In this document: positions 37,042-37,764 of the stretch, piece after piece
Layout: each line of letters begins with the position of its first letter
Numbering within the stretch: the stretch's first letter is position 1
Assembly: GCA_951406725.2 (NCBI GenBank)
Contig: OX597829.1
Span: forward strand, 43,710,001 to 43,774,000
DNA: 64,000 bases
Origin: Octopus vulgaris
Taxonomy: Eukaryota
Reading direction: 5' to 3'
Translations under genes and position numbers: made by a program
Notes under the pieces: generated by a model
Told to the model about the DNA's origin: nothing
The model's input: only the letters and a program-made list of their open reading frames with translations
Database searches by the model: none

Positions 37042-37105
37042 GAGTCAAGACTATTGAAAAGGTTGCCAAGACGCAACGAAAATTCTAGGAAAATAATAAA
37101 GAAAT
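37042..37105 (+). ncRNA. HHR family H5 motif (U3-A8 variant), host of the H6 insertion
   Basis: CTA-TTGAAAA-G-GTTGC-CAAGAC-GCAAC-GAA-AATT-C-TAG; homologous to 52719-52755. Confidence 0.6.
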
Positions 37106-37491
37106 ACGTAAGGGGGATCAGCCATCTGAATGTGGCTAGGGGCAGGGCGGGGTGGTGGGGGTGTTACTGATGCTTTTAGCCCCAGGCGATCATCAACGTC
37201 ACCAGAAGGGCTGACACCATCTCAGTATCCTTGTTTGCCTGCAAAGGGAGGTTATCCTCCCTCGAAGATACGGATACTACATACGGACCGGTTTCGAGGT
37301 CATTGCCTCTTATCAACGCATGGTAAGCACAGCTCTTCGCTGAAGGATTCCCTCTACAGGCAACATATATAAGGTTTTTCACAGTAACTACTGTCACTGA
37401 TGTAGAAAAACTGTCTGAAAACAATAATAAATCTCTGAACGAGATATAAACAGTAACTGCTCGACAACGTAAGGGGGATCAGCCATCTGAA
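37106..37491 (-). mobile_element. Retrozyme-like element H6: 361-nt unit plus 25-bp terminal redundancy, flanked by a 45-bp duplication
   Basis: ACGTAAGGGGGATCAGCCATCTGAA at 37106-30 and 37467-91; flanking duplicates 37061-37105 and 37492-37536. Confidence 0.85.
37281..37321 (-). ncRNA. Minimal type I hammerhead ribozyme, U3-A8 core variant
   Basis: ATGCG-TTGATAA-GAGG-CAATGA-CCTC-GAA-ACCGGT-C-CGTAT: 5-bp stem I, 4-bp stem II, palindromic stem III, GUC site. Confidence 0.85.
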
Positions 37492-37764
37492 GGTTGCCAA
37501 GACGCAACGAAAATTCTAGGAAAATAATAAAGAAATTAACGGCGAGAATAAGATGTCAACACAAATAATCGTATTCAGGCTTGTTTTGGGGTGTGATATC
37601 ATGTGATGTTGATTGAGAGACGAAGTATCTAGATATCGTGTGATATGCTGTTGTATTGTTTGAATGTCCTTTTTAGAATTAGTTCTTTGCTACGAGTAGT
37701 AATATATACTCATAAGTTATCACCCTTTTTTTTAATCCTATGTTGTTATTTTTAGTGTTAATAG

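Follow-up and report, generated by a model that had tools for sequence, protein, structure and literature searches.

We found that a 64,000-nucleotide stretch of Octopus vulgaris DNA (the window) holds, at 37106–37491 with its RNA strand on the minus strand, a recent and unfixed insertion of the element H6. This is a copy of a multi-copy, 361-nt, non-coding retrozyme that, in our view, was likely pasted in trans by a Penelope-type (PLE) enzyme with RT and GIY-YIG, probably from a small RNA circle. The element class is already known; what is unusual is the long target duplication, which recurs in the family, and the rule by which its two fixed ends, E1 and E2, are paired.

A recent insertion with two exact joints

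The insertion is 386 bp long and consists of one 361-nt unit and 25 nt of the next, as identified by repeat mapping, the family search and its absence from empty alleles. The 25-bp repeat is exact (37106–37130 versus 37467–37491, period 361), and repeat mapping bears out the composition that an earlier note had read from the letters. On either side stands one copy of an exact 47-bp direct repeat on the plus strand (37059–37105 and 37490–37536), both copies being recognized from the repeat itself, from empty alleles and from genome-unique letters. The left copy is the original target and part of a host repeat, H5; the first two bases of the right copy overlap the end of H6, and subtracting this 2-nt AA overlap gives the 45-bp duplication of the earlier note, which is confirmed. 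H6 has a GC content of 0.474 (below 50%). The longest ATG frames within the insert are 80 and 30 codons, and a frame scan of the insert found no single ORF with RT and GIY-YIG, so that H6 lacks this trait of an autonomous PLE. Beyond the right copy, the empty site goes on with TAACG (37537–37541), like the family's usual target/element joint (TA then ACG), and it is conceivable, as a speculation, that short pairing there aided H6 priming. Further to the right, 37566–37760 is an old dispersed repeat, 69–81% like its other copies.

The empty site was present in all four public runs that covered the right joint (four samples from three studies, under two organism labels). In these empty-site contigs, the unique right flank is joined to one 47-bp copy, preceded by H5 letters and not by H6; with a single copy in 4/4 runs, the 47-bp duplication was made by the insertion. 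A verified empty allele also means that both H6 joints can be read exactly. The letters before the 47 bp are exactly those of window 37041–37058 in contig X1 and of 37029–37058 in X7, while in X4 and X8 the last ten letters match the window and a divergent haplotype follows. The X4/X8 haplotype differs just left of the H5 core (37041–37050) and resembles a small inversion or an inverted H5 joint. Contigs X3 and X5 also stop matching at 37490 and were left out of the empty-allele count. X1 is identical to the window over 136 aligned bases, and the H6 insertion is therefore likely younger than the haplotype common to X1 and the window. The youth of the insertion, which the earlier note deduced from the perfect repeats, is supported on other grounds: the repeats cover only 72 bp and do not prove it, and the real case for it comes from the empty alleles.

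Only assembly G000 showed the filled allele, which appeared in none of the contigs from six runs examined (0/6); this is no proof of absence because contigs drop rare alleles. This count speaks for an assembly artefact, an explanation to which we give barely any chance, since the insert begins precisely at a fixed end of the family and includes letters that no other copy has, so that it was not pasted from elsewhere in the assembly, and since two other loci share its architecture. A 25-letter stretch with the copy's own variants matched the genome only at the window locus, and no donor was found, the nearest pieces being 2.2–2.8% away.

H6 ends carry a Penelope-type footprint across the family

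H6 is not a one-off capture: its family numbers at least hundreds of copies and comprises several subfamilies. A search of the 2.8-Gb genome with the H6 unit gave 105 matches from the best 40 scored of 2276 candidates; the first 30 letters of the unit have 99 exact matches and the ribozyme pattern has 91. A sister subfamily of ~355 nt, with ~80% identity to H6, accounts for 695 motif matches. The objection that the unit might be single-copy, or might always end in the same 25 bp, falls away, as copies are many and their ends vary over 118 mapped insertions. These 118 were found by similarity or by two motifs and hence lean towards young copies, and six loci on C31 with common flanks are one event counted several times. 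At these six places (L024, L025, L029, L030, L187 and L189), one H6 insertion recurs together with its flanks, in segmental duplications or redundant assembly. In another part of the genome, L217–L219 (C1) form a tandem array with a period of ~1385 bp; its unit contains a truncated copy of the sister subfamily, linked to a sequence that resembles a LINE reverse-transcriptase fragment.

The 118 insertions have 178 RNA 3' ends, of which 99 lie at E1 (unit 1–8), 66 at E2 (unit 313–319) and 13 elsewhere, so that 165/178 fall at two fixed points 47 nt apart; 88 of the E1 ends share one exact unit position. In the window copy, E1 is position 37106 (minus strand), the fixed RNA 3' end at which copying started, presumably primed from the target after 37105. 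The tail segment of ~47 nt follows from 37418 to 37466 on the minus strand, its far end (unit 313–319) being E2. By comparison with these fixed points, the free 5' ends of the 58 single-ended insertions are scattered from unit 20 to 356, and such variable ends exclude ends of the LTR type. The 25 nt that begin the second turn in the window (37467–37491, minus strand) end at a 5' truncation point of this kind, joined to the target via AA. The window copy starts exactly at E1 and runs for one turn and 25 nt, and it has no second arm. The earlier view of the 25-bp redundancy as the mark of a random turn is not supported: its left end is one of the two fixed family ends and its right end is an ordinary 5' truncation. 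A third, more distant H6 relative lies at L257:5322–5517, with 91% identity in the tail and about 70% likeness to the sister subfamily in the rest; on sequence comparison, this conserved tail suggests that the tail may be the recognized part.

Two inverted arms are present in 60 of the 118 insertions, 53 of 163 arms exceed one unit, and (TA)n adjoins 122 of the 178 ends. Target duplications outside microsatellites measure 11–13 bp at nine loci and 8 bp at one. Where both ends of a two-armed insertion could be classed, E1 was paired with E2 in 48 of 51 cases (E1 with E1 in three, E2 with E2 in none; nine further two-armed insertions had an unclassed end), an excess with a binomial p of ~1e-11. 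Fixed 3' ends, scattered 5' ends, (TA)n neighbours and 11–13 bp duplications together make up the footprint of a PLE, and they place H6 among the animal non-LTR retrozymes. This Penelope-type footprint, which the earlier note had overlooked, supplies the main explanation of the H6 insertion. The published descriptions, as far as their available text goes, list corresponding PLE traits: fixed ends with an optional tail, two internal initiation sites and AT-rich cleavage on both strands (PMC11167929), and partial tandems and inverted 5' pieces (PMC8557442, PMC3846280). The retrozyme class proposed for H6 in the earlier note is likewise supported by the type I hammerhead, the 361-nt non-coding unit, the many copies, the GC content below 50%, duplications longer than 4 bp and a self-paired RNA. 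Reinsertion of animal retrozymes has so far mostly been inferred from common ribozymes and from co-occurrence with PLEs. The H6 family displays the PLE footprint directly, and it gives a sharp rule, one arm from E1 and the other from E2.

Long target duplications and the adjacent H5 repeat

A 33-letter part of the 47-bp stretch has exactly two occurrences in the 2.8-Gb genome, and both are at the window locus, so the repeat arose by local duplication and does not represent a second H5 cDNA. Long duplications were found in three of the 58 single-ended H6 insertions: the window copy, L162 and L167. In L162 the repeat is 75 bp long with 93% identity, and the 5' joint shows 6 nt of microhomology; in L167 it is 181 bp long with 98% identity, and a 7-nt filler is present. 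The flank match of the two-armed insertion L182 is a microsatellite and was left out of this count. H6-type insertions can thus duplicate tens to hundreds of host bases. These cases would fit a course in which the second arm is not primed and the end of the cDNA attaches to target DNA lying further behind the first nick.

The host repeat H5 (36260–37105, plus strand, left boundary approximate) is an older copy of another PLE-type non-coding family and lacks ~80 nt of the usual 3' end, as it already does in the empty alleles. The H5 family, with 837 candidates, shows two preferred 3' ends of its own, and its copies have inverted joints and adjoin (TA)n. At 37051–37088 (plus strand), the window H5 copy has a minimal, degenerate hammerhead-like motif whose core is of the U3-A8 type and whose helix II is preceded by a single unpaired base; by its letters it is a putative ribozyme, which the insertion left intact in the left duplication copy. 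Within narrower limits, the motif spans 37054–37081. The cleavage position is U in most H5 copies and C in this one. A second H5 copy in the window (52600–52845) has an inverted 5' piece and ends at the usual H5 3' end before (TA)n.

The H6 cut at this site lies in an old H5 copy, 20 nt past the H5 cleavage position, and the earlier note had proposed targeting of, or template switching onto, the H5 ribozyme. A related possibility is that the right 47 bp are a separate H5 cDNA, which would make the locus a chimera of two RNAs. The 5' joint does fall inside the H5 core, 2 nt before helix II, and two of the 117 other H6 insertions abut H5. Both of these, however, meet H5 through (TA)n at its 3' tail, so that the adjacency is explained by common targets and not by ribozyme targeting, and none of the 117 lies at an H5 ribozyme, which leaves targeting unsupported. 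A separate H5 cDNA is opposed by the two 47-bp copies, which have common variants absent elsewhere in the genome, by the empty allele, which already joins the 47-bp sequence to the unique right flank, and by H5 copies in general, which normally end 80–170 nt further on. Long duplications also occur at sites without H5. We accordingly give targeting or a chimera only a very small chance, and the position of H6 beside an H5 ribozyme repeat looks like a coincidence.

The H6 hammerhead and its enclosing stem

On the minus strand at 37281–37321, H6 has a type I hammerhead motif with a U3-A8 core and a palindromic helix III, which was read by hand and then checked across family copies; cleavage is predicted after C 37286. 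These positions are the ones that the earlier note had given for a minus-strand hammerhead. Helix I has 5 bp, the core reads UUGAUAA, helix II has 4 bp with a 6-nt loop, and helix III is ACCGGU. Rfam searches with thresholds of E up to 1 over the window and E up to 10 locally returned no hammerhead. In the 74 copies that span the ribozyme, variation falls mainly in loop 2 and in one G-U/A-U pair of helix I, and the sister subfamily has a helix III of different sequence that is also palindromic.

The long imperfect stem around the ribozyme, another feature described before, was confirmed by folding and by comparison across copies (37226–37370, minus strand; arms 37232–37249 and 37349–37365), with compensatory changes between subfamilies. 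Two-sided changes occur at seven of 40 predicted H6 pairs in 59 copies, which are related and do not represent independent events; the set came from 78 stem copies, from which four that had inversion joints and some near-duplicates were removed. The minus strand has a fold z score of -3.7 as a line and -3.8 as a circle, versus -1.3 for the plus strand as a circle, and the fold beats shuffles on the minus strand only.

Folded as a circle, H6 RNA is 63% paired, and this self-pairing, the size of the unit and the hammerhead are the properties that would suggest the one-off capture of an infectious viroid-like circular RNA. Scanning for two core patterns, though, located a ribozyme core on only one strand of the unit, and a one-off capture would have to account for genomic copies that number at least in the hundreds, fall into several subfamilies and have ends of the PLE type; we attach practically no probability to it.

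An RNA circle or a linear multimer as template

A circular RNA is the likely template of H6. Among 163 clean arms, only two end within 3 nt of the ribozyme cut site and 103 read through it (95 once, eight twice), so the template was not the cut linear monomer. There was no pile-up of 5' ends at the cut (2/163) and no clear one at the putative transcription start (6/163), and the window copy reads past its own unit's putative start at ~37341. At subfamily-diagnostic sites, turns and arms within an insertion differ by 0.36–0.42 per 100 columns, versus 4.3 between loci. At least three diagnostic differences separate four of 80 within-insertion pairs versus 365 of 500 pairs between loci (several pairs per locus), and the four pairs imply that two RNA templates are sometimes used. 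Among nine loci examined, most of them chosen for repeated hits, L272 has one arm with 3.5 near-identical turns. Overall divergence within insertions (1.7–1.8%) is not below that of the best other-locus match (0.9–1.3%, a minimum over many comparisons), a result that does not speak for a single template. The diagnostic-site count is the better test of the template than nearest-locus divergence, and it cannot separate a circle from a uniform donor.

The same PLE-driven insertion could also have used an uncut linear multimer, transcribed from a tandem donor, with circles, if made, as by-products. We consider this unlikely, yet deserving of weight. Tandem H6 copies with at least two ribozymes occur in the genome (the window copy has one), eight of 163 arms cross the cut site twice and longer arrays are found too, while only three of 163 arms exceed what a two-unit donor could yield from its own promoter. 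The lowest-energy fold of the H6 monomer lacks an active ribozyme core, which, to the extent that this model holds, would hide the core in a monomer. The four within-insertion pairs that point to two templates lean the same way, and, in the available text of PMC11167929, an anole PLE used uncut RNA in vitro and ribozyme cleavage was not needed for insertion. On the other hand, a transcript from its own promoter would lose the upstream promoter with each copy, and arrays should shrink unless regenerated. Most differences between the turns of an array are private, compensatory changes have preserved the ribozyme together with the stem around it, and similar mussel repeats of 350–390 nt are described as accumulating as circles in the accessible part of PMC7229834. 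The earlier suggestion of slightly more than one turn of a circular RNA is compatible with the data, fitting the read-through, the near-identical turns and the 48/51 E1+E2 pairs; the first two would be accounted for equally well by an uncut multimer transcribed from a uniform donor.

Proposed course of insertion and the helper enzyme

With a circle as the favoured template, tandem H6 copies would be transcribed on the minus strand, and paired hammerheads would excise 361-nt monomers that are ligated into circles. A helper enzyme would then nick AT-rich DNA, here after 37105 (AAT|TAA), and reverse transcription would begin from E1 inside the RNA; in this case it would have run for one turn and 25 nt, past the ribozyme cut site. 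In the usual course, a second nick 11–13 bp away would prime a second, inverted arm from the other fixed start, the arm that is missing here. The cDNA end would instead have joined the target 45–47 bp behind the first nick through the 2-nt microhomology, duplicating the stretch between, and the H5 copy would have served only as an AT-rich landing place.

We also offer, tentatively and as a possibility that falls somewhat short of probable, a more specific reading. A dimeric Penelope enzyme would copy the ribozyme-made 361-nt circle from two hard-wired internal starts, one for each nick, with E1 used on one strand and E2 on the other; the PLE tail would be the offset between its active sites; and when the second arm fails, the cDNA would re-enter behind the primer and duplicate 45–180 bp. 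If this two-start reading is true, the window locus, whose empty allele is known, would represent a clean product of a single arm, made by an element that is still active in the germ lines of cephalopods.

The same genome has intact RT and GIY-YIG elements with a 781-codon frame, and the copies examined end in (TA)n. They form a young autonomous PLE family with many near-identical copies (L250–L253 and L266–L269, e.g. L251:1664–4990). In the copies examined, the 3' region is long and repetitive, and a TATA box and a U3-A8 ribozyme motif of the minimal type are also present. What this family has in common with H6 is the ribozyme core only and no terminal sequence. No autonomous partner sharing the H6 ends was found among 50 GIY-YIG loci (best 150 of 6136 candidates scored), one of which had an H6 relative as a separate insertion. 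An H6 match 2.2 kb from a GIY-YIG domain was considered as a helper locus and rejected, as it turned out to be an H6 insertion of its own, at a distance of 1.2 kb from a PLE.

Within the insert, a TATA-like box (~37371) and an initiator-like site 30 nt downstream (~37341) form a putative promoter (37341–37373, minus strand), from their likeness to the rotifer PLE pseudo-LTR in the available part of PMC3846280. The 30-codon frame (37394–37486, minus strand) runs across E1, at codon 7, and the tail, whose end is at about codon 22, and it is open for at least 22 codons in 100 of 115 contexts. It may resemble rotifer PLE pseudo-LTRs that include the first 12–22 ORF codons, and could conceivably be a remnant of a PLE ORF start, although chance might also produce it. 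With these 30 residues as the query, the best 150 of 6091 candidates gave no partner with a long ORF, the longest open frame being 167 codons.

Relation to known elements and neighbouring motifs

Animal retrozymes are reported as type I hammerhead repeats of 150–450 bp that form circles (PMC7229834), and they are described as non-autonomous PLE derivatives (Li, Clavereau and Pollet 2026, 10.64898/2026.07.22.740005), in the portions of both sources that were available. With the metazoan non-LTR retrozymes, H6 has in common a non-coding unit (361 nt versus 350–390 bp in mussels), a type I hammerhead and a short palindromic helix III (Cervera and de la Pena 2020, PMC7229834), as well as a GC content of 47%, tandem turns, duplications longer than 4 bp and a proposed PLE origin (PMC7229834; 10.64898/2026.07.22.740005). 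Unlike them, as far as the accessible descriptions go, it has a U3-A8 core and two visible fixed ends, and its copies mostly consist of one to two turns with inverted arms in place of long arrays. Circles and cleavage have been demonstrated for published metazoan retrozymes, whereas H6 is known here from its sequence. In the open-licence literature, we found no paper on cephalopod retrozymes and none that joins PLE internal initiation with retrozyme circles.

The likeness to endonuclease PLEs (anole Poseidon PAc, PMC11167929; rotifer Pen2a, PMC3846280; PLE structure in PMC8557442), judged from the available text of these papers, includes two fixed starts around a tail and AT-rich cleavage of both strands. 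It further extends to 5' truncation, partial tandems, inverted arms, short duplications, TATA and initiator motifs and microhomology at 5' joints. H6 differs from these PLEs in having no RT or endonuclease frame and in its tail (~47 nt versus 30–40), and its duplications are 11–13 bp, with rare cases of 45–180 bp, versus 8–10 in rotifer Pen2a (PMC3846280). The U3-A8 core variant is also that of the Schistosoma Cercyon PLE hammerheads (Cervera and de la Pena 2014, PMC4209133, in its accessible part). The H5 motif, with its unpaired base before helix II, fits the minimal PLE hammerhead described there, and activity dependent on a dimer would be expected, as for other minimal PLE hammerheads (PMC4209133). 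The H6 ribozyme, with a canonical 4-bp helix II and a helix I extended within the long stem, is nearer to retrozyme ribozymes than to the minimal form of that account (PMC4209133).

Other hammerhead-like motifs occur elsewhere in the window. An inverted pair at 47813–47838 (minus strand) and 48043–48068 (plus strand) carries another minimal U3-A8 hammerhead motif with a palindromic helix III, and its sequence suggests an insertion of the PLE type with two arms, belonging to a different family. Close by, 48333–48408 is an inverted pair of canonical-core hammerhead motifs, and the same repeat family adjoins (TA)n in L224. A further hammerhead-like core, with a candidate helix I of 8 bp, lies at 28426–28470 on the plus strand.
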